Assembly: GCA_044892525.1 (NCBI GenBank)
Contig: CM097885.1
Span: 12,712,001 to 12,776,000 of the forward strand
DNA from: Schmidtea polychroa
Lineage: Eukaryota
DNA length: 64,000 bases
Direction of reading: 5' to 3'
In this document: positions 1-42,270 of the stretch, one piece after another
Layout: each line of letters begins with the position of its first letter
Position numbering within the stretch: position 1 is the first letter of the stretch
The notes under the pieces: generated by a model
Seen by the model: the letters and a program-made list of their open reading frames with translations, nothing else
What the model was told of the DNA's origin: nothing
Database searches by the model: none
Made by a program: the position numbers and the translations under genes

Positions 1-170
1 GGCAGCTGGCATTTGGCATTGGGCATTGGCATTTGGCATTTGGCATTGGCATTGGTATTGGTATTGGCATTTGGCATTGGCATTTGGCATTGGCATTTGG
101 CAATGGCATTTGGCATTTGGCATTTGGCATTGGCATTTGCATTTGGCATTTGGCATTGGCATTTGGCATT
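1..170. repeat. TGGCAT/TGGCATT 6-7 bp tandem repeat
   Basis: Directly visible; explains the spurious W/H/G-rich ORF 26..250. Confidence 0.95.
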
Positions 171-1311
171 CCTTAACAGTACTGCCGTATAATATTTCTG
201 ATGGGTTCTGGAAGGCCGAAAGGAGGTCTTATGTCGGATGTATTCCTTAATAATTTATGGTCATATGAACACTTTGGTAACGAGTGATAACACACAAAAA
301 CAGATTCGCCTTTGTGCCTTCTTTCCATATTTTGCATATGGCTTGATGTTTGACTTACTGTGATTAAACTCTGATGAAGATCTGATTCAATAACATAAAA
401 AAGGAAAAGAAACAACATTATTATTTATTATAAGGAGATAACTAATGGTACATTATTTCATAAAATGGTGACGATCACAAGAGGAGGTATCTCCTAATTC
501 ACATGATCACAAGTTTGATTTTTCCTTTGGAACTTCTCCTGAGGTAGTTCCAGAACGGGCGTGCGCAGATCAATAGTTGTCGCCAGGAGCTGAACTCCAA
601 AATATGTTCAGATGACCAGTGTTGTCGATGTTGTACAGCATAAGAGAGCAGATGAAGCGAGTAGAGTTACTTCTGAAGCCTTAAAATTATTAGCAACAAC
701 ATTATCTGGGCAACTATCGAGAAATTTCGCAATATCGAAATCTGTGAAAATTTGAGCGTCATGATATCACTTGCGATTTCACAACTGAATTTAGAAGAAT
801 TAAAATTTTTTAAAATAGCCAAATAAAAAAAGATGTGTTTAAAATTATCTAGTTTTTGAAAAAAGATTTCCAATAATATTTATTATTTTAATACCACATA
901 ATAACAACAACAACAACAAAAACATAAATAATAATTTTATTTTAAATAATTTTCAGTTCATAAGAATTATTAATTTATTACAAAATTTCTCTATACACAA
1001 TATTGCGCGTGAATATATGATTGTATATATAGTATAATAATAATAATAATAATAATTATTCATTTAAGTTACTAATAACAATTAATAGATAAATTTATTA
1101 AAATATAACTGAAAAATATATTGAGCGCCACAGAATCAGTGAGTGAGTGAGCGATTGAATGACCTGGACCTTTATAACATATATATTTAAAATTTATTGT
1201 TGATAAAATTATACTATTTACGGTAAATATAAATTATATATAAATACAATAAAGTCTATATAGATGCGTCCTAAGAGTACAAATTGGTATTATTAAAGAA
1301 AGGATTCGAAA

Positions 1312-2935: not shown

Positions 2936-3289
2936 AATATTTCATAACATTGAGCACGCATATTGAAATTTTAATTTTGAGAGAATGTAAAAGAGTGAGA
3001 TATAGAGAAAGTTAAGAAACTATGTTTTTACGGTTAGTTTTTTATAATATTCATAATGCGTATCAGCTAGGAAGAAATTCTTGCTAGAGAGTTACAGGAG
3101 GATAAATTACAAAGTTAACTTTTATCCGAGAATTTTTAAGTTCTCCAGACTATGAATAGTAGTAGGGTTTTAGGCGATATAAGCCAGGCGCCCCCAGCCA
3201 AAGTAACATTTATTAATTTCTCTAATTTACAATCTAAATATCACTTCATAAACCCATTTTCAAGTCTTAAAGTTGATATATTACAAAGC

Positions 3290-17934: not shown

Positions 17935-18997
17935 CGTTTTCTTGGATTTTTATTCATACATTATATAGATAAAATTTAATTTTCTATAAAATAGCTTGAT
18001 TAAAAATTATGTCTCCTATGTTGTGTGTAATACACACATGTTTTTACGATAAATTTGTATTTTTCATACAGTTAACGTAATTTTCTTAGGATTTTATTCA
18101 TATAATATATAGATAAAATTTAATTTTCTATAAAAGGGATTGATTAGAAATTATGTATCTTGTTTTGTGTGTAATACACACATGTTTTTACGATAAATTT
18201 GTATTTTTCATACAGTTAACGTAATTTTCTTAGGATTTTATTCATATATTATATAGATAAAATTTATTTTTCTATAAAATAGCTTGATTAAAAATTATGT
18301 CTCGTATGTTGTGTGTAATACACACATGTTTTTACGATAAATTTGTATTTTTCATAAAGTTAACGTAATTTTCTTAGGATTTTATTCATATAATATATAG
18401 ATAAAATTTAATTTTCTATAAAATGGATTGATTAGAAATTATGTATCTTGTTTTGTGTGTAATACACACATGTTTTTACGATAAATTTGTATTTTTCATA
18501 CAGTTAACGTAATTTTCTTAGGATTTTATTCATATATTATAGAGATAAAATTTAATTTTCTATAAAATGGATTGATTAGAAATTATGTATCTTGTTTTGT
18601 GTGTAATACACACATGTTTTTATGATAAATTTGTATTTTTCATACAGTTAACGTAATTTTCTTGTATATTTATTCATATATTATATAGATAAAATTTAAT
18701 TTTCTATAAAATAGCTTGATTAAAAATTATGTCTCGTATGTTGTGTGTAATACACACATGTTTTTACGATAAATTTGTATTTTTCATACAGTTAGCGTAA
18801 TTTTCTTAGGATTTTATTCATATAATATATAGATAAAATTTAATTTTCTATAAAATAGCTTGATTAAAAATTATGTCTCGTATGTTGTGTGTGTTAATAC
18901 GATAAATTTGTATTTTTCATACAGTTAACGTAATTTCCTTGTATATTTATTCATATATTATAGAGATAAAGTTTAATTTTCTATAAAATGGATTGAT
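17935..18997. repeat. 144-bp tandem array, about 7.4 copies, two unit variants
   Basis: CGTAATT recurs at 18076, 18220, 18364, 18508, 18652, 18796 and 18929. Confidence 0.95.
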
Positions 18998-19579
18998 CTA
19001 GAGTTTAAAATGTTGTATTATTTTATTACTTTGTTGCAATATTTTTATAATCTTATAACAATTTGCTTAAATATTTTACATCTGGTGAAATATTTCCGAA
19101 ATATGTTATTACTTTGTTGATTTTACTGAAAGACTTCACAATTTATTACAATATTCTTTTTAATTTGTTGTCCGTCTTCGAAATAATGTATTTATTTGTC
19201 CCAATTAACATCATTATTTTATTACTTTGTTGCAATATTTTTATTATTTTAGTTACAATTTGATAAATATTTTAGAACTTTGTTGAAATTTTCTGAAATA
19301 TGTTACTACGTTGTTGTAATATTTTCTAATCTTGTTACAATTTGCTTAAATATTTTACAACTGTTGAAAATTTATCTGAAATATGTTATTACTTTGTTAC
19401 AATTTTATGAAAACGTTATTACTGTTTTGCAATTTGATGAAAAATGATATTACTTTGTGGGTTCATCGCATTATTTTTTATTAAATTATTATGAAAATGT
19501 TGAATAAGTCAACTTTAGCATTAAAATGTGTTTTAAAATATATTGAAGTTTTAAAATACTGCAACGTAATGCATTTATT

Positions 19580-19690
19580 TTTCCTACCCCTTCCATGATT
19601 TTGATTGGTCAGAATATATTTATTTTTCCTACCCCTTCCTTGATTTTGATTGATCAGAATGTAATCATGTGTAATATATAAGCAGTAACT
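19580..19690 (+). promoter_or_regulatory. Putative pPolB promoter (duplicated inverted CCAAT module plus TATA)
   Basis: Two copies of TTTTTCCTACCCCTTCC.TGATTTTGATTG.TCAGAAT followed by TATATAAG. Also at about 27496-27552, and a related copy at about 40435-40475. Confidence 0.55.
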
Positions 19691-19941
19691 TTTCAAATGT
19701 TTGTCATTTAAACTTTTAATTTAACTTATATAAGTGAATAATTTTTTATTCTCTATCTAATATTAATGATTATTTTCTTTTAGTGAACGGATGCAGTTTA
19801 TATAAATTTTGTATTGCCGAAAGTCATGAAGATGTGGAGAACTGTAAATCAGTTACATCATCATATTTCAAGATAAATGACTCTACCTTATCGGGTTACA
19901 TATGTCCGGAATGTCTTATTATATCACCAGGTAGGTGGTAA

Positions 19942-22900
19942 ATGTTTGTACGACAACACGGACACCATCTTAGAAGATTCGAAGAAACGAAGAGCAGGAT
20001 GATCACTAAAAGTAATACTCTTTCTACTATTAACAATTATTAATTTTTTATAGTACAATCGAAAATGAATACATCATACGATCCTAAGCAGATTAAAGAA
20101 TATGTTACAAGTTATGTTATTTAAGTTGTTTAATATTAATTATAAATATAGTTAGACAAAACTCTGGCACCACAAAACGAAAGTCAATATTTTACGGAAA
20201 TGGAGACTCTAACATACAATTGTGTCCACGTCGGGAGTCTGACTTAAATGGTTCTCGTGTTGAATTGACAAGCGATGTATCTGCAATTAATTCTCCTGAC
20301 ATTGTTGTTCCAGATTGCCTCATCAAAGAAATAGAAGATCATATTCAACGAATGGGGACAGTAAAAATCCAATTTGGACTTTGTGCAGAGTTTATCAAAG
20401 AGGATGGTGAAATTAAAAAATGGTGTTTGTCGAATAAAGCAATTACAATGTCATCTTCATTTATTAATGATGGAATTGAAAAATTAAAAGAAAAGTTGAA
20501 GAAATACACTCAACAAAGTAGTGGGTGGAGAATTCATAAAATATTAGAAGTTACTATGATTTTAACTAAATTATCAGACATAATCCATGTATCTGGTAAG
20601 TTTATTTACATTATTATATATATAAATCAAGATATTTACTTAGGTTCAAGTTACATTAAAACGCCAAATTACCTGAAAAACTGCCAGGCTTTAGTTAATG
20701 TTCAAAATAATGATCAATTCTGCTTTTTATATAGCATACTGGCCGTATTTCATTATGATGACATACGTCGGGATAGAGAAAGAACAACAAAATATAACTT
20801 AAGTGGTAATATATATATTTATAAATGTCATAAATCATTGAAATTTGTTTTTAAGACTTAAAATGGAAATTTGAATGGTTTCCGATGAAGTTGGTTAACA
20901 TTTGCCAATTCGAAGCAATGAATCTAAATCTAGCGATCAATGTTCTCAAATATAATAAAGATCCAATTAAACAAAAAACTAATGATATTTTCAAGAATCC
21001 GTTCGTTGACTTGGTATATAGAAGTACTTCGACGGGATCTCAAATATATCTCTTATTGATTGAAGAAGGTAATATTTCCATTAATCATTAAAATATTAAC
21101 TAAATTTTAGAATTAAATTATCATTTTTTGGCTGTAACCAATCTCGATCGACTGCTGAATTACAGAGATAAAGTAGAAGGAGTCAGAATCCAATCACATT
21201 GGTGTCATACATGTCTTCATGGGTTTCAAAAACGTCCTGCTTTTGAAAGACATATAGGTCTTTGTAGGAAGAATGTGGAGCGGACGACTCTATACTCAAT
21301 GCCAGAGAATAAATATATCGAATTTAAAGACTGGAGTAAAACTATAAAACAGCAGTTTGTTGTCTACGCGGACTTTGAATCAATATTACCTCTAGATGAC
21401 AAGCACTTCCAAAAACATGAGCCGATTGCATCTGAATTTGTGCTTCTTCATCAAGGTTGTCCGATTCGAAATGAAACATTTGTTGGGAAAAACTGTATCA
21501 TTCAGTTTATACAAGCATTGGATGATATAGCTACAGACATAGTTTATCCGTGGTATAAAATTAATGGATCGAAGGAAATGATGGAACTCACTTGGGAACA
21601 GCAGGAAGAATTTACGAATCAAACTCATTGCTACCTTTGTAAAAAGATTATCAATATACCTGTTCGGGATCATGATCATTTTACTGGTCAATATCTCGGA
21701 GCAGCATGTCAACATTGCAACTTGGCTAGAAGAATCAATCCGTCTTTACCTGTTGTATTTCACAATCTTCGTGGATATGACATTCATCATATATTAAAAT
21801 ATGCAATTGCAAAATTCCCCGATTGGAATTTAAATGTTATTCCTCAATCAACAGAAAGTTTCTCACACTTACAGCGACATCGAAAGGCAGAAGAATTAGA
21901 TTCATTGATTCTTTACAACTTTTAAATAGCAGCTTGGCAAATTTATCAAAAAATTTACCATGTCTTCCACTGACCTCAGATGTTTTCGAATCACAGATGA
22001 TGACTTGTAAAACCATTTTTCCTTATGATATGGCTACATCAATGGATGCTTTACAGTCAATAACAGAATTACCACTGATTTGGGAGGGAGTTAGTGAAGA
22101 AGATTATATACATGCAAATCGAATCTGGCAACAATACAACTGTGAGACACTGCTAGATGCTAATATATCTCAAGCTGGATGTTTTTCTGTTGGCCGATGT
22201 TTTTGAAGCTTTCAGAGAAAAAACATTTGACGAAGATGGACTTGAGGCTTTATCGTTTGTTTCCATACCCGGATTAAGTTGGGCATCAGCTATTAAACAG
22301 TTACCTGAACCGGTAGAACTTATTCAAGATCCAGAGCTTTACCGTTTATTTGAAGCTGGTATTCGTGGTGGAATGACATTTATCAACAAACATCATGTTG
22401 AAGCTGATGAATCAACACAAATGTCATGCCTAGATGTTAATAATTTATATGGATGGGCGCTGTCGCAAAAACTTCCTATTGGTGAATTTAGATGGATAAA
22501 TGATCAGACTGAAATGAATGGTATTGTTGAAAGATGTGCAAATGGGGATGAGTTTGATGGAGATCGTGGATATGTTCTAGAGGTTGACATCGTCATTCCT
22601 GATAGTATACAAGATAAGCTAGATGATTTACCTATAACTCCTGAGCTTTGTTATCCACCTGGTAGTAAAGTTGAAAAGCTGTTGTTAACTCATGAGCCTA
22701 AGAAAAACTATGTAGTTAATGGTAGAATTTTGACAGAGTGGTTGAGTTACGGCGCAAAAGTCACAAAAGTTAATCGTGCTGTAGAATTCAAGCAAGTGGC
22801 TATTTTCAAAGGATATATTGATTACAATACCAAAATGAGAGCAGCTAGTACGGATTCGTTTCAGCGAGATTATTATAAGTTAAAGAACAACAGTTTATAC

Positions 22901-23710
22901 GGTAAAACTGTGGAAAACTTGAAGAAACGTATAAATTTGAGATTATGCAGCAAAAGCAAAAGATTGATAACTTATTGTAGTAATCCTATGTTTTGTCGTA
23001 GCATCAAGATTGTTGATGATCTCATTGCTGTTATACTTGATAAGGAAATGGTGTGTTTAGATAGACCAATGTATATTGGACAAACCGTACTTGATTTATC
23101 TAAACTTCGCATGTACCAGTTTCAATATAAAGAACTACAGAGTTATAGAGAAGAATTCAATTGTCAAATTAATATCGTAGCCGGTGACACAGATTCCTTC
23201 TTTTTAGAGTGTAAAAATGTTGATTTACGCTTACAACTATATCCAAAAATGATTGAAGATGGGCTCCTAGATACTTCAAATTATCCAGTGACTGATCCAT
23301 TGTTCTCAGATAAAATTTGTTCGGTAATCGGGAAAGTTAAGGATGAGAATAAAGGAAATCAATATAAAGAATGGGTGTTTCTTCGACCCAAGTGCTACTC
23401 ACTCCAAGGCGATAAAAACACTCTAAAAGCCAAAGGAATAAGTCTTACAAATTCTAATATCACCCATGAAGCTTATAAAAAAGTGTATACTGATGGTCGA
23501 ACAGTGAGCATCCAACAAAAGAGAATAGGAAGTGTTAATCATCAGTTGTATACTTTCATTACAGAAAAACGAGCTCTCCAATGTTTGGATGATAAAAGGT
23601 ATTGGTTCAATTCTAATGAAAGCTATGCCTACGGTCACTATAAGATTCGTCAAATGCATATTGCAACTGCTCCGTCTACAAATGAATACAAATCGAAACA
23701 AGCACTTTAA
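19942..23710 (+). pseudogene. polB: Polinton/adintovirus protein-primed DNA polymerase B, spliced, with two frameshifts
   Basis: Exonuclease motifs YADFES, FHNLRGYD, YLKLDV; polymerase motifs LDVNNLYG, KLKNNSLYGK, GDTDS; EndoVII-like CYLC..RDHDHFTG..CQHCN. Introns 20012-20053, 20111-20151, 20596-20643, 20806-20855, 21069-21110. Frameshifts near 21860 and 22157. Start codon uncertain. Confidence 0.92.
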
Positions 23711-27337: not shown

Positions 27338-28675
<1,338 letters not shown>

Positions 28676-29659: not shown

Positions 29660-29891
29660 ATTTCAAATTTCTATCATATGTTAACTAAAAAAATCATGGT
29701 TAACTAAAAACATAGTCGAATATTATAAAATTTATAGTATTGTGTTAGCACACACTCGTTATAATAATTAGCAATATAGTTTTCCTGGTGTATCAAATCA
29801 AAACCTTTCTTTTACATTTATAGTCTATCAACCAATCAAAATCATACGGTATTAGTATAAATAAAACATCATATTTTAAATTATTGTAGAA

Positions 29892-30409
29892 ATGTCTCAT
29901 TTTATGGAAAATCTTTTAAGCGAACTTATCAACAAGAAGATTATGGAAAGCCTCAGTTTCCTGGTCGATCGGACCGAAAAGATTATAGAAGGAAATCATA
30001 TTGATTACGAAGATATGCTCAATTCCGATTGTCTCGAAACAAAAAAGTTTTATTTTCACCGGATATTTAATTGTCTATGTGATGACGAGATGAAGTGGAC
30101 CTGAATACTAGTAGGGTTTGCATATATGAAAATCATCATAGAAAAAAGTTTATGGGACTCTGAACATTATTATCAGTGGTCTCAAGAAGTAATACTTTTA
30201 TAATCTATATTTTAATAATATTTATTTTCTAGATAATCAAGTCCAAATTTCAACCATGGATTGAAGCCAATGGCGGATGGGGTGTATTGAACCAACTCGC
30301 TCGAAATGCAAAAGAAATAGATGAACAGAAAAAGTTTAAAACCTATGTAAAACTTGCAACAGGTGTTGCTATTTTGTATGCTTTATCGCGATTTGTAAAT
30401 AAAAATTAA
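29892..30409 (+). pseudogene. Bcl-2-like protein (exons 29892-30188, 30233-30409; about 157 codons; premature TGA at 30102)
   Basis: BH1-like LCDDEMKWT*ILVGFAY, BH2-like WIEANGGW, hydrophobic tail LATGVAILYALSRF; 44-nt GT-AG intron. Confidence 0.8.
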
Positions 30410-30526
30410 TGTAGTTATTTTGTTTTTTAAATAGATTTTTAAATAAAAAATTAATCTAGTTTTTTTTTTTTTTTTTAAATAAAATTAATATAGTTTTTTT
30501 TAAATAAATTAACAAACAATAATTAA

Positions 30527-30894
30527 CTAAAATTTATTAACACATTCGCAGTCGTCATCTCCACATTTCATTATATTTTCAACGACATGATCAATACAAT
30601 CATTCGTAATATTATCTTTAGGTTCCTCTATAGGTTCATCTATAGGTTCATAGATTTCGTCATCAATTTCTTGAGTATCGGTTTCTTGAGTTTCTTCCTG
30701 ATCGTCAAATCCTGTATCTTGACTCTCAACTACCCAGCCGATATTTAATGCATTTGTAACAGATAATATGTCCTCAATTTTTACACCAGCTATTTCTGCT
30801 AATTTTTCAAACAAAAAGTTGATTAATAATTCTAAATAATAAATAATTCGGTATTTAATTAATCATGTTAACCTTTTTCTGCAGTCATTTTCAT
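30527..30894 (-). CDS. Small acidic protein of unknown function (exons 30894-30873, 30831-30527)
   Basis: A 41-nt GT-AG intron joins MKMTAEK to ELLINFLFEKLAE...; D/E-rich, Cys-containing C-terminus; TATAAA upstream. Confidence 0.65.
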
Positions 30895-31021
30895 CACTTT
30901 AAAGCTATATTTTAAGTTTGTTTATAGATTTTCTTTGTTAAATTTGCATGTCATTTGCATTTATGTTGCAATTAATAAATAGAAAAAACAAATATGACTA
31001 ATACATTTATAAAATATAACA

Positions 31022-31432
31022 TTAAAATATTTGTGATAGTCTAGCAGACATAATTTTCCAAATAGGGGAATATACATCATTATTATCAACTTTATATCCC
31101 TGGATTGCAATTGTTATATACCAATTTTCATTTTCTTTGAAACCGATTTCATCAAAAGCATCATAAAATCTTGCATATCTATTGTTGAACCAGGCATGTT
31201 GATTACACGATAGATTCGAATCTATCCGTTTAAAAACATCATCAATAGTTTTAACATCTATCATTGAAAGCGTGCCGGATAAGAATTGAAATTTAGTTGG
31301 AATTAGCTTGACGGGTGCAGCCAATTTCATATTGATTTCTTCTTTCAAAAAATACATTTTGTAGTTGTGGAACATTTGAACTGGTTGTACCATTTCTTTA
31401 GGTCTTTCGGTGCATGAAATTTTCTTGGTCAT
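31022..31432 (-). CDS. 136-aa protein, putative OB-fold single-stranded DNA-binding protein
   Basis: Intact ATG ORF with upstream TATATAAA. C-terminal strand pattern YITIAIQGY...YSPIWKIMSARL resembles T7 gp2.5/NCLDV-type SSBs; function is inference. Confidence 0.6.
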   Translation of the reverse strand: MTKKISCTERPKEMVQPVQMFHNYKMYFLKEEINMKLAAPVKLIPTKFQFLSGTLSMIDVKTIDDVFKRIDSNLSCNQHAWFNNRYARFYDAFDEIGFKENENWYITIAIQGYKVDNNDVYSPIWKIMSARLSQIF

Positions 31433-31692
31433 CGTAAATAATGATTAAAATGAAATGTTACAGGGTTTATATACCTTTGACTCATGCCTATCAACCAATC
31501 AGATTATAGCATGTCTTTGTTTAAATTGCATGTCATTTGCATTAATGTTGCATTAATGTTTTTATTATAAATATTGTTTTTATTATTATTATTTCAAATA
31601 TTACTATTATTACTTATATTATTACTATTTCTATTATTATTTCTATTTCTATTATTTCGATTTACAAAAACAAAACAATTCAACATAAAAAT

Positions 31693-32099
31693 TTATTTTG
31701 ATACAATCTGACTCGAGTGGTGATTTCTCAGAGTCTTCACCAAACACCATTCAACATATTGTTGATAACGGAAATTGCAGCAGCTACATCCGAAAATGCA
31801 AGGAGCCTCTGGTTTCATTTCTTTCATCACCCTTCCTATCTTGACATCCCATAGAAAGGTGTTTATTATATCGAATATCCAGATTCGTGTTTGGTTGTAT
31901 ACCGAATCCGGAATGATAGCTGGATCTCTATCTTGTAGAATTTCATTTAATTCTGGATAATAAAAGCATAATCTTTGCAGGATAATTGATTGATATTCAT
32001 CTGTAAAAATATATATTAATGTAATAATAAAAATTTGAAATTACCATAATTTGCATACTCTTTCATTGAGGTGATTGCGGAACTTTGTATGTTGTACAT
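31693..32099 (-). CDS. Spliced 120-aa hypothetical protein (exons 32099-32045, 32000-31693)
   Basis: MYNIQSSAITSMKEYANY|DEYQSIILQRLCFYYPEL...PCIFGCSCCNFRYQQYVEWCL...SK*. 44-nt GT-AG intron; open throughout; missed by the ORF track. Confidence 0.7.
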
Positions 32100-32159
32100 T
32101 TTTGTTGAATAAATGATTTCTAAACAGAAAACATATTGTTTAAAACAATCATTAACCAA

Positions 32160-32597
32160 TTAGAAATTGACCAATGAAATTATCTCATTTCGAACATTGT
32201 CAACAAATTCTCTATACTCCAAATTTCTCAACCCCAACATGACAACCTTTCCACTAGCAAACACGTTGACACATATAGGGTTATATTTTAATAGTCTTAG
32301 TGCCGGAAACAATTCTGGTTCAAACATACAATCACATTTTTTTGACATGTTATATAGGTTGATACTATGTCCCATATCCATAGTAACGGTAATTGATTGG
32401 ATTTTAATATTATTTATTCGATATTGTAATTTATTAATATCCAAGGGTTTCTTACATCCCATGATTCTACATTTGCCTGTCTTGAAAAATATTATCGGAT
32501 ATTTCCCGCTTCTATCGATAATTTGCTGGGGTTTCCCTGGTGGGAACCTCATATTCGATACATCAAAATTTCCTCGATAATTTATATTTGCTAACAT
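32160..32597 (-). CDS. TATA-binding-protein-like protein (145 aa)
   Basis: Two TBP-type repeats: ANINY...IIFFKTGKCRIMGCK and KIQSITVTMD..HSINLY...FEPELFPALRL...VNVFASGKVVMLG (compare TBP YEPELFPGL...LIFVSGKVVLTG). Confidence 0.88.
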   Translation of the reverse strand: MLANINYRGNFDVSNMRFPPGKPQQIIDRSGKYPIIFFKTGKCRIMGCKKPLDINKLQYRINNIKIQSITVTMDMGHSINLYNMSKKCDCMFEPELFPALRLLKYNPICVNVFASGKVVMLGLRNLEYREFVDNVRNEIISLVNF

Positions 32598-32696
32598 TAT
32601 TAAATCATTTATGAAAGTTAGTCTTTATATACAAATTGAGCACGAGTTCATTAAATCATCGAATATAAACAAATACACATTTATAAAATTTTTGAA

Positions 32697-33323
32697 ATGG
32701 AATTAAGAAATGATGCAGTATACCAAATCGTTGGTCCGAGTGGTAGTGGAAAAACATTATTTGTTTGTAAATTACTAAAATCAAATTTATTCAAATCAAA
32801 ATTCAACAGGATTTATTGGCATAGGGGTGCTGATGAAGAACATGGATTAACTCAATCAAGTTTCTGTAAATTAAAAAACATGAAAATAGTAAAGGGATTC
32901 GATAAAAACTGGTCCAGCCGATTAAAGAAAGGTGATGTCATTATTATCGATGATTTGTATCAAGAAGCTAATAAAGAAAAAGATTTTAATAATTTATTTA
33001 CAAAGATCAGCAGACATGTCGGTGTAACAGTTATTTTCATAACACAAAATCTATTTCATCAAGGTGGAGCACATCGAACACGTAATTTAAATGTACAATA
33101 TTTAGTTATTTTCAAGAATCCTAGAGATGCAATAGTGATTGATTTTCTTGCACGTCAAGCATACCCTAACAATCGTAATTTTCTTATCAGTGCATTTCAA
33201 GATGCTACAAAAATACCTCATGGATATATATTTCTTGATTTCACACAACAATGTCCCGATGATTTACGAGTAAAAACAGATATTTTCAACCCAAAAGGTG
33301 CCATGGTTTATAAACAAAGTTGA
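32697..33323 (+). CDS. A32/FtsK-like DNA packaging ATPase
   Basis: Walker A GPSGSGKT, Walker B IIIDD, SRH..VTVIFITQNLF, YLVIFKNPRD. Confidence 0.95.
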   Translation: MELRNDAVYQIVGPSGSGKTLFVCKLLKSNLFKSKFNRIYWHRGADEEHGLTQSSFCKLKNMKIVKGFDKNWSSRLKKGDVIIIDDLYQEANKEKDFNNLFTKISRHVGVTVIFITQNLFHQGGAHRTRNLNVQYLVIFKNPRDAIVIDFLARQAYPNNRNFLISAFQDATKIPHGYIFLDFTQQCPDDLRVKTDIFNPKGAMVYKQS

Positions 33324-33341
33324 AAACCTCTATGAATAATA

Positions 33342-33875
33342 ATGTTTCTAAAAGCAAGGGTGAAAAATATTAGGAAATTAAGAAAAAGTATTAGAAAGAG
33401 TATTAAAGTTCCAAAAGTTCCACCAACTACTAGTTATACACCATCTAAAAAACTTGTAACTGAAAATTTCTCTGCAATGAATCTTATTTCGAAAAATCCT
33501 AAACCTAAACGTAAAACCCGTAAAACCCGTAAAACCGGTAAAAAAGTAGTTAAAAATCATCGCAGTTTTCCATTTTTTAATGCATTGTTAAAGGCCACGA
33601 GTATGAAAAGAATGAATATATTGCAATCATTTCCAAATTTTGTTGTCGATGATTTACTCAATATTATACTTAAAGTAGTCAAAGGCAAAATTAAAATCAG
33701 TAAATCAAAAAAGCATTTATTGAGCAAACATAGGAAACCATTGTTATCTTTAGTAAATAATAAAAATCGTAAGCAAATGAGGAAAATTATATATAAACAA
33801 CAAGGTGGATTTATTGGTGCATTGATACCTCTGGCATTATCATTATTAGGTGGAGTTGTAGGAAATCAATCATAA
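33342..33875 (+). CDS. Basic core protein with pX-like C-terminal peptide
   Basis: Very K/R-rich. Ends QQGG|FIGALIPLALSLLGG, resembling an adenain cleavage site plus an adenovirus pX-type hydrophobic tail. Confidence 0.75.
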   Translation: MFLKARVKNIRKLRKSIRKSIKVPKVPPTTSYTPSKKLVTENFSAMNLISKNPKPKRKTRKTRKTGKKVVKNHRSFPFFNALLKATSMKRMNILQSFPNFVVDDLLNIILKVVKGKIKISKSKKHLLSKHRKPLLSLVNNKNRKQMRKIIYKQQGGFIGALIPLALSLLGGVVGNQS

Positions 33876-33936
33876 ACAATGGGTGCTAATCCTTCATTGC
33901 CCGACATTAAATTTAATTTTAAATCTTCTTGTTGTA

Positions 33937-35071
<1,135 letters not shown>

Positions 35072-35075
<4 letters not shown>

Positions 35076-36088
35076 ATTTTTATACTATTTTACCGAGCAA
35101 TAGTTGCCCATTAATTCATCCAGACAATCAAGCCAGTAAATTTATGGTCAATCTCCAGAATCCGATTTCTTTAAATGGGGACTGGGAAGTTGCACTGCAA
35201 GATTTTACATTCGTGTACAATACATTCCAATTTTATAGTCAATGTAAGATTGATTTCAAAAGGAATATTGTGAAAATATGTAGCGGTATCTTTGTTATCA
35301 GTAATTATGATAAAACATATCATATTCCGAATCAAATATTAGATTCGCATTGCTATATGTTTTACAAGGATGGATTAAATATCAGTTGTGATTTTAAACC
35401 ATTTACAATAACATTCGAAACTATTGAAGATGCCAAACGAATGGGTTGTAATAAGTTGAAAAATATTGTTACGGAGACCGAGTATTTATTACGTTTTAAT
35501 CTATTTGAAGCAAACAGTGTAATGAAAGAAGAAATCAAAATATCTGTATCGTATAATGATGAAGTTGAAGAATCATTTACCTTTGCTGATGAATTATATT
35601 TTGATAAACTTGATGATTTACTTAAATATTTAAAGTTCAATTGTTCACACATATTTAAAAATTTGGAAATTGTGAAAGATTTGATGTTTACCTTCAGTTT
35701 GAATGATGATATTTGCGAAGTTACATTTGATAAAAATTTGGCAAATTCACTTGGATTAGATAGGCAAAAATATCGAGAAAAATCGACTGGTATACGCAAA
35801 CCAAGAATACTAGAACATCATCAACAAATGTTCATATATACTAACATTATCGAACCCATAATTGTTGGTGATTCCAGTGTTCCTCTTTTGAAATCGGTAT
35901 GGATTGGAAAATATGAACATGATGAAGTTGTCAATATAAATATCGATAATCCCATGTATTTACCAATAGCAAGTTCATGTATAAACAATATAGAAATAAA
36001 TATTCGTGATGATAGTGGAAAACTTATAAACTTTCCAAAAGGTTCAAAAACTCATTTGACATTACATTTTCGTAAAATAAATGGCTAA
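35072..36088 (+). CDS. Minor capsid (penton-like) protein; start apparently mutated to GTG
   Basis: NFYTILPSNS...F.V.L..PI.L.GDWEVAL and MFIYTNIIEP.IVGD...PLL...NPMYLP...IEINIRDDSGKLINF...LTLHFRK are typical Polinton penton motifs. Confidence 0.88.
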
Positions 36089-36443
36089 TTCTGATATTAT
36101 TAGTATGTATAGTGGTAGCCAATCTGGCGGTGAATTACCATATTTTATTGGTAAACAGTACGGATCAGGATGGTTGAGAACAATTGGTAGATTTGCCCTG
36201 CCTATTCTTAAACGTATTGGTAGTTTTGGTATGAAAACTGCAAAAGATGTTATTATGAATGAACAGAAAATATTACCATCTCTAAAAACAAATGCTATAG
36301 CTGAATTAGGGAAGGTTTTACCAGGGGTTGCAGGTATGTTTCAAAAAGATACGCCTCCAGCTCCAGCTCCAAAGCGTAAAAGACATGGAATATCACGTAT
36401 AAACAAACGAATGAAAGGACACGGAACTATATTTGCAAAATGA
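36081..36443 (+). CDS. Conserved Polinton small virion protein with amphipathic helix (pVI-like)
   Basis: QSGG and QYGSG motifs followed by WLRTIGRFALPILKRIG; basic C-terminus; overlaps both neighbours. Confidence 0.75.
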   Translation: MANSDIISMYSGSQSGGELPYFIGKQYGSGWLRTIGRFALPILKRIGSFGMKTAKDVIMNEQKILPSLKTNAIAELGKVLPGVAGMFQKDTPPAPAPKRKRHGISRINKRMKGHGTIFAK

Positions 36444-37636
36444 TTTGTGGTAAATCCGAATTATGTATATTTGATAGACCATCGCCTCAAGCGGTAATCG
36501 AATTTGGGGCATTTGAGGAAGTTTTTCCTATGAATTCAATTACCGATAGTAGAAATGATATAGAGTTTTATATTAATGGTTCGCAAACTGAATATTTAGA
36601 TTTGAACGATACTTTATTGACTGTTCAGATCAAGGTTGTAGATAAAGATAGAAAAGTTTTGGATGCCAATGCAGATGTAATACCGAACAATTTCATGTTT
36701 CATACTCTTTTTAAAGATGCAGTGTTGGGATTTAATAATATCAAGATTGAGGGTGGAAATAATACATTCATTCACAAGGCTTTGATAGAAACTATTTTAA
36801 ATTACAATTCTGATACTAAAAATACATGTCTTACTCCTATGGGTTATGGCAGTGATGATGAAAGAAAAAAGTGGGTAAAAGGCTCAAAGGTTTTCACCAT
36901 GTGCTCATCATTACAACTTGATTTTATGGATCAACCGAAATATTTACTACCGGGAGTTAATGTACATATTATACTGAAAAGGTCTGATTCTGCATTATCT
37001 CTTACTAGTGCAACTGGTGCACCAATGTGTCAATTAGTTGATGCAAAATTATTGGTGAGAAGAGCAGGTCATCAATTGGGTCTTAATTCAAAACATGCAA
37101 TTTATCCATTAAAAACAAAGAAAATTGTACAATTTGCTATTGCTAAAGGTGCTTCATCTTTCTATAAAGAACAAATATTTGGTGACCGAAGAATGCCTAA
37201 TTTTATTCTGATAACATTTCAAAGTGAAGCACAATATAATGGATCATATACTGCGTCCAGCTCAATTTTCAAAAACTTTGGTGTTAAATCATTGACTTTG
37301 TCGAAAAATACTGATTATAGAGAAACATATATTCAAGATTTCGAGAATGACAATTACTGTGCGACATATATGCAGAGTATTGTTAGAAATCTGGGTTATT
37401 TAGATAAAAATTTGAATTGCGGAATAACTCTAGAAGATTTAAAAAGCAAATACCCATTTTTTACATTTGTTTTAGCCCCTGATTTTGATTTAAATCAAAG
37501 TCAATTACCTCAAAATGGAAATTTACGACTGGATATAAAGTTTGCAAAAGCTATTACTGAACCAGTACATGTTATAATATATGGAGTATTTGAAAATGAA
37601 GTTCAAATTACTGCAAATAGAACAGTGTTGGTATAA
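36440..37636 (+). CDS. Major capsid protein (double jelly-roll)
   Basis: CGKSELCIF..P..Q..IE...IEFYI.G...YLDL, QPKYLLPGV, GNLRLDIKFAK. Possible short in-frame deletion after LLVRR. Confidence 0.92.
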   Translation: MICGKSELCIFDRPSPQAVIEFGAFEEVFPMNSITDSRNDIEFYINGSQTEYLDLNDTLLTVQIKVVDKDRKVLDANADVIPNNFMFHTLFKDAVLGFNNIKIEGGNNTFIHKALIETILNYNSDTKNTCLTPMGYGSDDERKKWVKGSKVFTMCSSLQLDFMDQPKYLLPGVNVHIILKRSDSALSLTSATGAPMCQLVDAKLLVRRAGHQLGLNSKHAIYPLKTKKIVQFAIAKGASSFYKEQIFGDRRMPNFILITFQSEAQYNGSYTASSSIFKNFGVKSLTLSKNTDYRETYIQDFENDNYCATYMQSIVRNLGYLDKNLNCGITLEDLKSKYPFFTFVLAPDFDLNQSQLPQNGNLRLDIKFAKAITEPVHVIIYGVFENEVQITANRTVLV

Positions 37637-37775
37637 ATGTATACAGAAACACAAAAAGTTGTCATGGAGTAAGTTGTTTTTTTATACTCTGGATTTATTT
37701 AAGTAGTTCTGTTCAGGTCAATAAAATCGGAAAACAGATATTGGGAAATGAATTTGTTGGAGTTTTTCCTCTTTC
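37637..37775 (+). pseudogene. N-terminal stub of an adenain-like cysteine protease
   Basis: ATG abuts the MCP stop. After a short GTAAGT..AG intron it reads ..MD(S)SVQVNKIGKQILGNEFVGVFPL, then breaks off; catalytic region absent. Confidence 0.55.
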
Positions 37776-39559
37776 CAGATAACAACTCACCTGAATGTTT
37801 TGAACAAAAATGAGCGAAATTGAGAACAAACGATTAGATGGCGATTAACTTCTGGCCACATCCCTAACAACATGAAAATTAAGATTTTAATTATTGAATT
37901 CGTTGTTTTCTGCCTGGAAATACTAACAGAATATTTTTTAATTCAAAGAATCTTCATTATAAATTTTTGAATTTAAAAAATTAAATGAAGGATATATTAA
38001 ATTTACAATACATAATATTATATAAAATTATACTATATTTATTAATAAATTTAGAATACATAAAATTATAATATTATAATATTTTATAAAGTTATACTAT
38101 ATAATAATGTTTAAATATGCTTAAATAACTAAAGTGTTTAAATATGTTTAAATACTAAATTTAAATTATTTAAATTTAGATTATTTAAATATAATTTTGA
38201 TATAACTTTATTTCTTTCGTTTTAGTATCCATAAAGTAAGTAAATAAAGAATTTACTACAATATTTTAATTATTTTACTTAGTAATGAAGAAAATGAATT
38301 ATATGATTATGAAGAAAATGAACCAGACAAAATGGTGAAACACTAATGGAGTTATAGTTCCGGATTTTTTAAATGAATTAGATGATTGTGGGTGTCCTTC
38401 AACATGAATGTTTACTTAAATTATGTAAACTTTCTTTCAACGAATGTCAAGAAAAATGGGAAAAATCGATGTTTTATCAATTAAGTAAAGTACTCGTCAT
38501 ACCTGAAGAATATTATTATTAATGTAAGATATGAATTAATTCTTTAAAATATATATATTATATTTAGGTATCTGTGTTTTATGGTGGGAAATGATATTGA
38601 AAAAGTATACCACAAATAACAGTTGCCTAATTTATCAAGCCTGTGATGATAAAATGTTAGATAATGTAAGTTAATTGCTTTTAAATCAATATAAATTTAG
38701 CAATGATAGTTGACACCACATCAGAAACTAAGAAATATGTCCAATTCGCAAGATGTATTCCATGAAATCACTATCAAATGGCCTGATGGAGAGATTAATT
38801 TTGAGATGGATTACCAACAGAAGAGCGAGAAAAATTTGTAAATTAAATATAATAGGGTTGGGTGGGTCCTCTTTATCCCTTAATTAATATATATTTACAA
38901 GCTGATCGTCGTGGTGGGCGGTTGTAATCCAACTAGTGGGAGGCCTCTGTAAATATATATTTGTGTTAGTGAAAACAATAATTAATTTGGTTATAGTGCC
39001 AATGACGCATGTATTTTGAAATTATACGTTTCGAATGTGCTAGTAGTTGACTACCCATGCTAGGCGTAATGTTCCGTACGGAAAACTATAATGCCCAGGT
39101 TCTTCTGACCCCACTTGGGGGAGGCACAGACGACCCTTGTGGACGCGAACAAATATCCACCGTGTCTTTCAGGCACAGATATTTGGTCACTGCTCATTAG
39201 GCCTGGCAATACTAAATGCATTAACTTTGCCTTGTCCTCTCTTGTCTTGATTTTTATCGTTTAAAAGTGTGTGTGATAAGTTTTATTTACTAACCTTAAT
39301 AAACCATAATATGCTTTAAGATCGAAAACCCTTGTTGAGTGTGAGTAGTACCCTTGCTAGCAATACCCATAGGGGGACAGAATATTTTGTCGGATAGACT
39401 AGGAGTAAATACACCCATGTTAAACAAGGTATGTGTATATAGAATGTGTGTGTAAAATTATCGCTCCTTATTGACAACTTCCTGTAAAGGCAAACACAGA
39501 ATACTGCAAACATAATAATACTCTACCCCATAACTTAGTATGTAAAAATTATTTAAGGT

Positions 39560-40267
<708 letters not shown>

Positions 40268-40622
40268 TCCCGCGCGTGTTAATACTTAAAAAGAAAATAT
40301 TGAAAATTTAAAAAATAATAATATTTATGCAAAGCATGTGCAATAATTATGTCTTTGTTAATTAAGTAAACTTTAGTGTCAAAATAAGTTTTTAAAATAT
40401 TTTTAAATTTAAAATACCGCAACTTAATATATTTTTGTTCTACCCCTTCATTGATTTAAGTTGGTCAGAATTTAATAATAATTATATTATACCCTTTGAG
40501 ACATGTTGAATGTGAGTAGTACACCTTTGACCATTACCCATATGAGCAATACCCATAGAGGGGGACAGAATATTTTGTCGGATAGACTCTGACTATATAT
40601 GATAATAATATTCCCTGCGCGC

Positions 40623-40670
<48 letters not shown>

Positions 40671-40929
40671 TGAAATTGTATTTGAAAATGTTATGAACTG
40701 TGGAGATGATGAATTTGAATGTGTTAATAAATTATAGTTTGAGTGTATATTTAAAGTATAATATTTAGAATTTCTTTGTTAAAGTTTTGTCTTGAATATT
40801 TTTACCAGTAGCTTTGTGAACAGTACCCATGTGACTTGTTGAGTGTGAGTAGTACCCTTGTGTGCAGTACCCATAGGGGGACAGAATATCTTGTCGGATA
40901 GACTAAGTGTATATATAATAATAATAATA

Positions 40930-42270
40930 ATAATAAATGACCTTGAAAAAATAAATGACCTTGATGAGTCATCACGATGAGTCATATGACCTTGGGAATG
41001 ACCCTGGGTGAGTCACGCGACCTTGAAATGACCTTGATGAGTCATGGTCTTTGTTTAAATGACCTTGGTGAGTCATATGTCTTTGTTTAAAATTTGACCT
41101 TGACCTTTTATTAAAAATTTAACCTTGACCTTTTATTAAAAATAATATTTTGAAAAAATAAATGACCTTGAAAATAGTCTCGGGTAAACGTTAATAACTT
41201 TGTCAATATTAATGATGATGATAATATTTATACATCAGTAGATAGATCTTGCACTAAGCTTCAAAATAAGCTATCAATTAATAAATTCGGATAATGGGAA
41301 CGATAACATTTGGGGCAAACGAAAACCAGGTCACCGCTGGACCACTAATAATTATATGACCTTGAAAATGATTTTTGGTTAAATGTTAATAACTTTGTTA
41401 ATATTAATGATGATGATACCTTCTATGGATCAATCGAAAGGTCTTGGACCGAGCTTTAAAATGAGGTATCGTTTAATAATATTTGTTGGAACTCTGTACA
41501 TTTAAGTTTTAAAATATGACCTTGAAAAATTTAATGATCACTTAATTAAAACAAAAAATTAAATTAAAAAATGACCTTGAAAAAAAAATGACCTTTATGA
41601 GTCACGCGACCTGGAAAAAATAAATGACCTTGAAAAATAAATGACCTTGGGAATGACCCTGAAAAATTAAATGACCTTGAAAAAATAAATGACCTTGGAA
41701 ATAATGATATTTTGAAAAATAAATGACCTTGAAAATGGTCTCGGGAAAACGTTAATAATTTTGCCAATAATAATTATATTAATAATATTTATATATCAAT
41801 AGTTAGATCTTGCACTAGGCTTCAAAATAAGCTATCGATTAATAAATTCGGATAATGGGAACGATAACTTTTGGGATGGAAAAAAGTGTGAGCCCACCAG
41901 GCCACATAATAATATTTTGGAAAATAATAATAATTTAACTTTGAAAAGATGGTGGTCATCAAATTTTAATAACATTAAAACTATCAAAGATATATAAGAT
42001 ACCTATAGCTCATTCGAAAGGTCTTGGACTGAGCTTTAAGATGAGGTATCGTCCAATAAAGTCCGTTGGCGGGAACATTAATTTTTGGGATGAAAAAAAG
42101 TAGGAGCCCGCCAGACCACTTAATTAAAACAAAAAATTAAATTAAAAAAAATAAATAAATGACCTTGACCTTGACCTTTTATTTTTAAAAAAAAAATTTT
42201 TCCCGGGGGGGGGGAGGGGGTATATGTGTCGCGGGGAGCTCCTGTTCTGGGGAGCTCCAATCATACTACT
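40930..42270. repeat. Right terminal arm of the Polinton with TGACCTTG/TGAGTCA clusters and duplicated subterminal blocks
   Basis: Blocks at about 41130-41560 and 41700-42180 are diverged duplicates, inverted-homologous to 28960-29170. Confidence 0.8.

Follow-up and report, generated by a model that had tools for sequence, protein, structure and literature searches.

The 64,000-nucleotide stretch of Schmidtea polychroa DNA analysed here (the window: assembly GCA_044892525.1, contig CM097885.1, positions 12,712,001 to 12,776,000, forward strand) carries part of a Polinton/Maverick, a transposon-sized integrating element, and inside it a short open reading frame (ORF) that resembles the TATA-binding protein (TBP). 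The question raised by this locus is why such an element should bring its own TBP-type protein. The ORF is a minimal member of the TBP superfamily and a conserved accessory gene of one Polinton/Maverick (adintovirus-like) lineage. From sequence comparison and a structural model, we consider it probable, at about 0.55, that its product is a self-encoded promoter-recognition factor for the host RNA polymerase II (Pol II). The ORF and its immediate surroundings are the following.

32160..32597, minus strand: TBP-like ORF (P0001), 145 amino acids (aa), analyzed with Pfam, phmmer, AlphaFold2, Foldseek and VIA-align
32598..32696, no strand: divergent intergenic region of 99 bp, from the ATG of the TBP-like ORF to the ATG of the ATPase
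32697..33323, plus strand: A32/FtsK-type packaging ATPase, 208 aa (Pox_A32, 30.2 bits against a cut-off of 22.8)

The TBP-like ORF starts with an ATG, contains zero internal stop codons and is divergent from the A32-like ATPase ORF, the two ATGs being separated by the 99 bp listed above, in agreement with an earlier note on this DNA that had reported an intact ATG ORF divergent from a packaging ATPase. The Pfam TBP model PF00352 matched the 145-aa product in two stretches (E 1.6e-15, 57.1 bits, cut-off 22.9), of which the best covers residues 63-125, and the relatives at loci L120 and L042 scored 62.5 and 63.1 bits with the same model. Comparison with the chain sequences of the Protein Data Bank (PDB) by phmmer matched 35 distinct sequences, nearly all named TBP; the top match is an archaeal TBP (1.9e-11) and its aligned part is residues 55-133 only. 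The second repeat is about 25% identical to that of cellular TBP and recognisably homologous.

The structure of the window protein was predicted with AlphaFold2 using an alignment of 49 family members. The resulting model had a predicted local distance difference score (pLDDT) of 96.6 and a predicted template modelling score (pTM) of 0.85. When it was compared with solved structures by Foldseek, 44 of 44 matches at E <= 0.001 were TBP entries. VIA-align superposed the model on 38 TBP entries with Z scores of 11.1-13.3 and root-mean-square deviations of 2.3-2.8 Å over 140-145 residues (for example, model residues 1..145 on yeast TBP 66..240); the fold class after TBP had a top Z of 6.7. DSSP analysis of the model assigned strands 2-10, 25-28, 35-38 and 42-48 and no helix of at least 4 residues to repeat 1 (residues 1-60), and five strands with helices 81-85 and 129-144 to repeat 2 (residues 61-145). 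As modelled, the protein is a whole ten-strand saddle and not half of one, in which two tandem repeats build a single curved antiparallel sheet. Repeat 1 of the model is devoid of the H1 and H2 helices that canonical TBP carries on the convex face of each repeat, and because of their absence the protein is about 35 residues shorter than the TBP core. It appears to be among the shortest TBP saddles encountered in these searches, the family being mostly 144-165 aa long. The strong second repeat and the shortened first repeat that had been read by eye are thus both recovered in the model. The comparison by AlphaFold and Foldseek proposed in the earlier note returned the TBP fold, the lack of which had been named there as fatal to the proposal.

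In order to place individual residues, the family was aligned profile to profile with 15 cellular TBPs, including two of the present genome (probability 99.6, E 5e-24, residues 13-141). Residues F38, F97 and F113, invariant in the 49 family members, occupy in the alignment three of the four positions at which TBP has an intercalating Phe, and the first-repeat S2/S3 intercalating position was aligned with the family-invariant P23. According to this alignment the protein does not possess the four intercalating Phe, two per repeat, of canonical TBP, and the loss falls in the first repeat, as had been supposed by eye. The residues invariant across the 49 sequences are N6, P23, F38, M46, L81, E95, F97, N111 and F113. 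In cellular TBP, the E-P-E-L stirrup contacts TFIIB. The corresponding residues are predicted in repeat 2 at E93-P94-E95-L96, where E95 is the same in all 49 members and conservation reaches at least 90% at E93 and P94. At the positions N6, R44, M46, S68, N111 and L121, which we take to be DNA-facing by the canonical residue roles, TBP has respectively Val, Val, Thr, Asn, Leu and Thr (profile alignment, completed by eye); the six are invariant or nearly so in the family, R44 and S68 being nearly invariant and N6, M46 and N111 invariant. About half of the DNA-facing positions hold residues that are unlike those of TBP yet invariant inside the family, and the predicted DNA-reading surface is kept within the family yet unlike that of TBP.

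Relatives of the protein are widespread. A word-indexed protein search gave 110 relatives among 113 candidates, all with PF00352 and most of about 145-165 aa, and an exhaustive protein search gave 781 representatives at E <= 0.001, 112 at <= 1e-10 and 8 at <= 1e-30. These relatives keep the length and the invariant residues at 31-63% identity. In a scan of metagenome contigs, 178 stretches were found to encode the TBP-like protein and 80 loci were kept. By tblastn with the element proteins, a further Polinton gene was detected in 39 of these 80 loci, and in 13 of the 15 loci of at least 5 kb, so that the other copies and the synteny which the earlier note had suggested seeking by tBLASTn are both present. 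The TBP-like gene is upstream of and co-directional with the ATPase in 24 metagenome loci, divergent from it in 2 and placed after the protease in 9; in some loci it lies between the gene of the protein-primed DNA polymerase of family B (pPolB) and the ATPase. The scan of IMG/VR for relatives of the TBP-like protein gave one distant match only (L033, 25% identity).

In the S. polychroa genome, the counts refer to the best-scoring 150 places of 4172 first-look candidates for the TBP-like protein and of 5057 for the ATPase. Within these, the TBP-like protein is uninterrupted at all 150 places and 98-100% identical, and the ATPase is 100% identical at all 150. The divergent pair with its 99-bp gap was recognized in at least 20 places when the two lists were compared by eye. 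The element family is young and very numerous in this genome, and its best-scoring copies are no measure of selection. Selection was estimated between metagenome relatives, as the ratio of nonsynonymous to synonymous substitution rates (dN/dS) by the Nei-Gojobori method on 37 pairs of complete metagenome ORFs of 70-99.5% amino-acid identity. The 26 pairs with dS >= 0.2 gave ratios of 0.09-0.45, and 23 of these 26 were <= 0.24; among the remainder, 3 pairs were saturated and 8 had dS < 0.2, with ratios of 0.05-1.14 at a tiny divergence. These values, mostly 0.1-0.25, indicate that the TBP-like gene is under purifying selection.

The genome also contains host TBP-type genes: a canonical one with several exons (L114), two other loci of several exons that match the TBP model (L115 and L116), a gene for a 215-aa protein resembling the TBP-related factor TRF (L117) and a paralogue (L119). 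In a tree of 90 rows, all 72 Polinton proteins fell on one side of a branch with a Shimodaira-Hasegawa-like approximate likelihood ratio (SH-aLRT) support of 100; on the other side stood four host genes, 13 cellular TBPs and the viral-contig relative L033, which accordingly goes with the cellular TBPs and not with the Polinton clade. The tree thus places the TBP-like protein in a clade separate from cellular TBP/TRF. The phylogeny and the dN/dS analysis that the earlier note had advised point the same way, and the outcome it had feared, an ORF limited to this copy and nested in host TBP, is contradicted by the 150 intact places and by the separate clade.

To which kind of element does the gene belong? 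Other genomic copies match the window over 29737..37773 only and then continue with one another past both ends, and their contigs extend past both break points of the window copy. On one side, the window copy begins at the inner border of the left terminal inverted repeat (TIR), and on the other it is cut off within the protease gene, at 37773; no TIR was detected at its ends by a short-word blast. The complete copy B is about 18.6 kb long with TIRs of about 1.4-1.8 kb (L025:772-2603 versus L026:9416-7993, 85-99% identical in pieces). In full copies, the left TIR is followed by several minus-strand genes including the TBP-like gene, then by a plus-strand array coding for the ATPase, a 177-aa basic protein, an rve integrase, a 355-aa protein, a 120-aa protein, a 398-aa capsid protein, an adenain-type protease and pPolB, and finally by the right TIR. 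The corresponding features of the window are listed below.

29737..37773, no strand: truncated Polinton/Maverick, the part common to other copies (copy comparison), without TIRs, most of the protease gene and pPolB
33342..33875, plus strand: 177-aa lysine-rich basic protein of no known family, which adjoins the ATPase in relatives too
33937..35067, plus strand: rve integrase (rve 24.0 bits, under the cut-off of 32.6 in the window copy)
35021..36088, plus strand: 355-aa protein without family match, candidate penton/minor capsid protein by position only
36081..36443, plus strand: 120-aa protein of no known family
36440..37636, plus strand: double jelly-roll major capsid protein (MCP), 398 aa, model pLDDT 75
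37660..37773, plus strand: adenain-like protease gene, 5' part only (copy A ORF: Peptidase_C5, 23.9 bits against 21.3)

The capsid model superposed with Z scores of 24.6 on the PBCV-1 capsid protein, 22.0 on that of Sputnik, 20.2 on the mavirus MCP, 16.2 on that of PRD1 and 13.8 on the adenovirus hexon. The polymerase of the full copy A matched the phrog_1907 DNA polymerase family at 4.4e-10 and 5.4e-06; a phmmer search of its C-terminal part against PDB sequences gave no match. In the relative contig L042, besides the TBP match already given, rve (49.2 bits, cut-off 32.6), Pox_A32 (27.8 bits) and DNA_pol_B_2 (32.8 bits, cut-off 25.8) were all detected above cut-off. The low rve score of the window copy is due to a long in-frame (ATT/ATA)n microsatellite, read as poly-Ile at about 34300-34460, which interrupts the integrase ORF. 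The carrier is therefore a bona fide Polinton/Maverick with DNA polymerase, rve integrase, capsid protein, ATPase, protease and TIRs, pPolB, the TIRs and the whole protease being taken from full copies and relatives and not from the window copy. The earlier note had located the ORF inside a Polinton; this holds for the family that carries it, but the copy in the window is only the fragment 29737..37773. No RNA polymerase gene was present among the genes identified in the element, so any promoter-recognition factor encoded by it would have to work through a host polymerase.

The upstream regions of the element genes were then considered. Of 26 loci of relatives, 25 have ATAAAC at -60..-20 of the ATPase gene and none has it at -120..-80. 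For a broader count, the dereplicated -100..-1 upstream segments of the window and of the metagenome loci were pooled, giving 56 segments for the genes of the plus-strand array (late-gene segments). The most frequent 7-mer found de novo was ATAAACA, present in 42 of the 56: 22/25 for the ATPase, 7/7 for MCP, 5/6 for the 120-aa protein, 2/2 for the 355-aa protein, 1/1 for the 177-aa protein and 5/15 for the integrase. As controls, its reverse complement was found in 0/56 late-gene segments, the box itself in 1/56 segments upstream of the TBP-like gene, and the background is about 0.04 per segment. The ATPase boxes start 31-49 nt ahead of the ATG in 20 of 22 cases, and the base preceding ATAAACA is T in 25, C in 10, G in 3 and A in 0 of 38 boxes. 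In the window, seven plus-strand boxes (32665, 33310, 33793, 33872, 35002, 35981 and 36399) lie 19-144 nt ahead of gene starts, and the TBP-like gene has a TATA box of its own on the other strand.

32623..32631, minus strand: TATATAAAG, canonical TATA box of the TBP-like gene, 26-34 nt upstream of its ATG
32664..32671, plus strand: TATAAACA box, first of the seven same-strand boxes, 26-33 nt upstream of the ATPase ATG
33310..33316, plus strand: ATAAACA box, 32 nt upstream of the gene of the 177-aa basic protein
33793 and 33872, plus strand: ATAAACA boxes ahead of the rve integrase gene (33937..35067)
35002, plus strand: ATAAACA box ahead of the gene of the 355-aa protein (35021..36088)
35981, plus strand: ATAAACA box ahead of the gene of the 120-aa protein (36081..36443)
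36399, plus strand: ATAAACA box ahead of the capsid gene (36440..37636); the box array ends at 36405

The full copy B has 9 plus-strand boxes versus 1 minus-strand box inside the element and 0 in either TIR (about 3.2 kb). Over the entire window, 29 matches to ATAAACA were counted versus 42 expected; there is no excess, and significance attaches only to where, and on which strand, the boxes lie inside the element. Upstream of the TBP-like gene, TATAWA was found at -60..-20 in 28 of 61 relatives, with a peak in the -50..-31 bins, and a second conserved block, resembling ATCATAATT, was often seen by eye 10-20 nt ahead of the ATG of these relatives. Two putative promoter classes are thus observed, (T/C)ATAAACA before the ATPase-to-capsid genes and a canonical TATA box before the TBP-like gene. 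In the subfamily represented by locus L120 (G000:C1:149214200-149217200), both TATA-like boxes of 32598..32696 are retained and the rest of the intergenic sequence is different. The ATPase and the basic protein of L120 are respectively 95% and 96% identical to those of the window, but its TBP-like protein is only 54% identical, with a longer C-terminal tail; the left arm has therefore been swapped as a module.

In L042, four and three closely spaced reverse-strand boxes (TGTTTAT) are found in non-coding DNA at 3139-3205 and 923-963, one of the clusters separating the TBP-like gene from the ATPase; an array of binding sites is a possible reading. A role of the boxes as poly(A) signals of the AATAAA type was rejected, since the base before the box is never A (0/38) and it is ahead of the first gene of the array that the box is best conserved. 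The count of TATAWAWR in the window (414 versus 159 expected) was uninformative, being dominated by (TA)n microsatellites.

Taken together, the TBP fold, the stirrup, the altered DNA-facing surface, the lack of an identified polymerase gene and the two promoter classes fit a factor that would recognize the late-gene box and recruit Pol II. Of the two roles proposed in the earlier note, redirection of host Pol II to viral promoters and a decoy for TFIIB/TAFs, the box speaks for the former. A more detailed two-tier programme, in which host TBP fires the TBP-like gene and the minimal TBP then switches Pol II to the packaging and capsid genes, is put forward more tentatively, at somewhat less than even odds. 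In the reading given above as probable, the host machinery would first transcribe the TBP-like gene from its ordinary TATA promoter, and the product would then bind the variant (T/C)ATAAACA box ahead of the morphogenesis genes. In cellular TBP, it is repeat 1 that covers the 3' half of the TATA box. By analogy, the altered and helix-less repeat 1 of the element protein would sit on the invariant 3' half AACA of its box, the variable first base (T, C or G) would be under the canonical repeat 2, and this conserved repeat would recruit host TFIIB and Pol II. Without the convex helices of repeat 1, the protein may in addition escape host factors that dock there. The mechanism is plausible and testable via the box, yet unproven.

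Several observations weigh against this interpretation. One intercalating Phe is gone, other residues stand in place of two Thr and one Asn on the DNA-facing surface, and cellular TBP paralogues without these Phe are not known to bind TATA. The sequence TATAAAC, present in 31 of the 56 late-gene segments, contains a canonical TATAAA usable by host TBP, and ATAAACA fits the forkhead core, RYAAAYA, so that a host factor could read the box. All related loci were collected by way of the TBP-like gene, which leaves no Polintons without the gene for a contrast between box and gene, and the IMG/VR viral contigs scanned with the capsid protein gave no relative. The dN/dS pairs and the promoter segments are phylogenetically non-independent; the tree comes from a 'quick' search, and the Polinton clade may owe part of its cohesion to the truncation that its members share. 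Finally, the sequencing runs listed as containing the element include none recorded as RNA, and of four of them compared with it (X1, X2, X4 and X7), the three guessed to be RNA gave contigs without splice joints.

Among the other explanations, it is possible but unlikely that the protein is a decoy or competitor, which would bind TFIIB or host TATA boxes without initiation and would either damp host transcription or silence the element. In cellular TBP, the repeat-1 helices provide a large share of the convex surface that other general factors use. Both helices are absent from the model while the E-P-E-L stirrup and the entire second repeat are conserved, and a protein that keeps one interaction and loses the others is competitor-like. 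A decoy, however, needs no conserved DNA-facing surface, yet N6, P23, F38, M46, N111 and F113 are invariant, and a pure decoy leaves the position- and strand-specific box of the late genes unexplained.

An equally improbable explanation is that the box is read by host TBP or forkhead factors only and that the TBP-like protein serves another polymerase system or other targets, for instance of Pol III type or among host genes. The TATAAA and forkhead readings of the box given above are in keeping with this, as is the service of cellular TBP to Pol I and Pol III, the PDB matches including Brf2-TBP and Pol III pre-initiation complex entries. Yet the spacing of 31-49 nt and the strict orientation suit a core promoter better than an enhancer-type site, and 15 of the 56 late-gene segments contain CATAAAC, which is a weaker site for canonical TBP.

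A function as an architectural DNA bender in replication, integration or packaging, acting on AT-rich DNA at the termini or within the capsid, seems still harder to defend. The gene is indeed beside the packaging ATPase in many lineages (the 24 co-directional and 2 divergent loci), and TBP-like folds occur in rolling-circle replication initiators, which constitute the next fold class, but with Z scores of 5.8-6.7 only. The linkage to the ATPase is nevertheless not fixed, the gene being found after the protease (9 loci) or after pPolB; the box is absent from both TIRs of copy B; and it is TBP in particular that the sequence resembles, the TFIIB stirrup being conserved. As for a neutral, recently captured fragment of host TBP without function, it has nothing in its favour beyond the general habit of Polintons of capturing host genes, and can hardly be reconciled with the 178 metagenome stretches and 781 representative proteins, with the conservation of length and invariant residues at 31-63% identity, with the dN/dS values or with a single clade apart from the host TBP, TRF-like and paralogue genes.

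The preferred reading, a promoter-recognition factor directed at host Pol II, can be compared with known systems. With cellular TBP/TRF (PF00352), the Polinton protein has in common the saddle fold over 145 residues (Z about 13), the E-P-E-L residues and both second-repeat Phe; it differs from them by its length, by its repeat 1 without H1/H2 and by the replacement of one Phe by an invariant Pro. A likeness in working is offered by the TBP mimics of herpesviruses. The late promoters served by these mimics bear a variant TATA box. KSHV ORF24 and its homologues in beta- and gamma-herpesviruses direct host Pol II to viral late promoters, according to the accessible parts of PMC7498053 and PMC12529657. 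The herpesvirus mimics are large multidomain proteins acting in a multi-protein viral pre-initiation complex, whereas the Polinton protein is a stand-alone core of 145 aa; none of them was found among the sequence matches of the TBP-like protein, so that the likeness is one of working only and membership of that group is not claimed.

Viral proteins of TBP fold were also found by structure. In BFVD, 24 viral matches were obtained at E <= 0.001, including Heterosigma akashiwo virus 01 (1.9e-08), Terrestrivirus, ChoanoV1, a marseillevirus and the B263R homologue of an abalone asfa-like virus. The B263R-type TBPs of Nucleocytoviricota and asfarviruses share the TBP fold but are 186-608 aa long and 8-20% identical to the Polinton protein. 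Large DNA viruses with TBP-like proteins encode their own RNA polymerase. Virophage promoter motifs match the late promoters of the giant virus. Virophages and polinton-like viruses, small DNA viruses of the same realm, are described, in the portions of the literature at our disposal, as having a short conserved motif before most genes and, for virophages, as depending on a giant virus for replication; in the present element, by contrast, a TATA-like box is accompanied by the element's own TBP-type protein.

The earlier note had stated that a TBP is not part of the standard Polinton gene set. This is broadly true, but a 'TBP' label does exist in the legend of Figure 5 of Starrett et al. (2021, Virus Evol, PMC8502044), where it concerns MELD viruses with an adintovirus-like PolB. 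The elements covered by that legend come from non-animal datasets, and the accessible parts of the article do not deal with repeat truncation, distribution, selection or promoters; no mention of TBP was found in its supplementary file. When full texts were searched for Polinton, Maverick or adintovirus together with TBP, only this article and its preprint were relevant. No mention of TBP or TATA occurs in the accessible portions of PMC11161782, PMC11131425, 10.1101/2025.02.07.637071 and 10.64898/2026.06.19.733378, and the mention in PMC10675990, within the part available, concerns mirusvirus-like elements and not Polintons. A TBP gene in Polinton relatives has thus been noticed before, without analysis, and the promoter box is new here.

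Little is understood of how Polinton/Maverick genes are controlled, and especially of how an integrated copy remains silent and then turns on capsid production. A conserved TBP together with a box before exactly the morphogenesis genes would constitute a concrete and testable switch. If the proposal is correct, a transposon-sized integrating animal virus would possess a stripped-down counterpart of the late-gene TBP mimic of herpesviruses, and a mid-sized integrating virus would join the giant viruses and herpesviruses that bring their own TBP-type factor. A natural minimal TBP, with one helix-less repeat and one Phe fewer, could also inform on what the saddle needs for DNA bending and TFIIB recruitment.

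On the left side of the element, two further minus-strand genes are found downstream of the TBP-like ORF.

31693..32099, minus strand: Cys-rich gene, probably of two exons (intron placed by eye from GT..AG), without Pfam family
31022..31432, minus strand: 136-aa ORF of no known family, with homologues beside the TBP-like gene in 20 of the 80 metagenome loci

The 136-aa protein is characterized by a conserved C-terminal motif, IQGYK ... PIWKI, and its gene accompanies the TBP-like gene in variable orientation; it may be a cofactor of the TBP-like protein. A protein-atlas search with it gave no usable match, and Pfam and PHROGs assigned no family to the 136-, 115-, 111-, 177-, 355- and 120-aa proteins. 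The capsid protein had as its top match in a library of viral structures an uncharacterised protein of Cotesia sesamiae Mombasa bracovirus (25% identity, E 1e-23), which suggests that this wasp virus record contains a Maverick-derived capsid gene. In sequencing run X4, which bears a second species label, most of the contigs matching the element (706 of 1049) did so at 90-95% identity, and a relative of the element may therefore exist in another organism.

Other repeats surround the fragment. To its left, pPolB fragments that carry an endonuclease VII-like zinc motif (Pfam, 24.1 bits) extend over 19573-23710, the pPolB pieces being at 19614..23710; they showed zero DNA match to the full-copy polymerase at the blast settings used, and the first 1.2 kb is duplicated at 27483-28675 with 98% identity. 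Immediately left of this pPolB fragment, a tandem array at 17937-19002 consists of about seven units of 144 bp that are 83-97% identical. To the right, the element fragment is flanked by a repeat family rich in (TAA)n and (GT)n (37771-42150), which is also found near copy C, on its other side (L028/L029).

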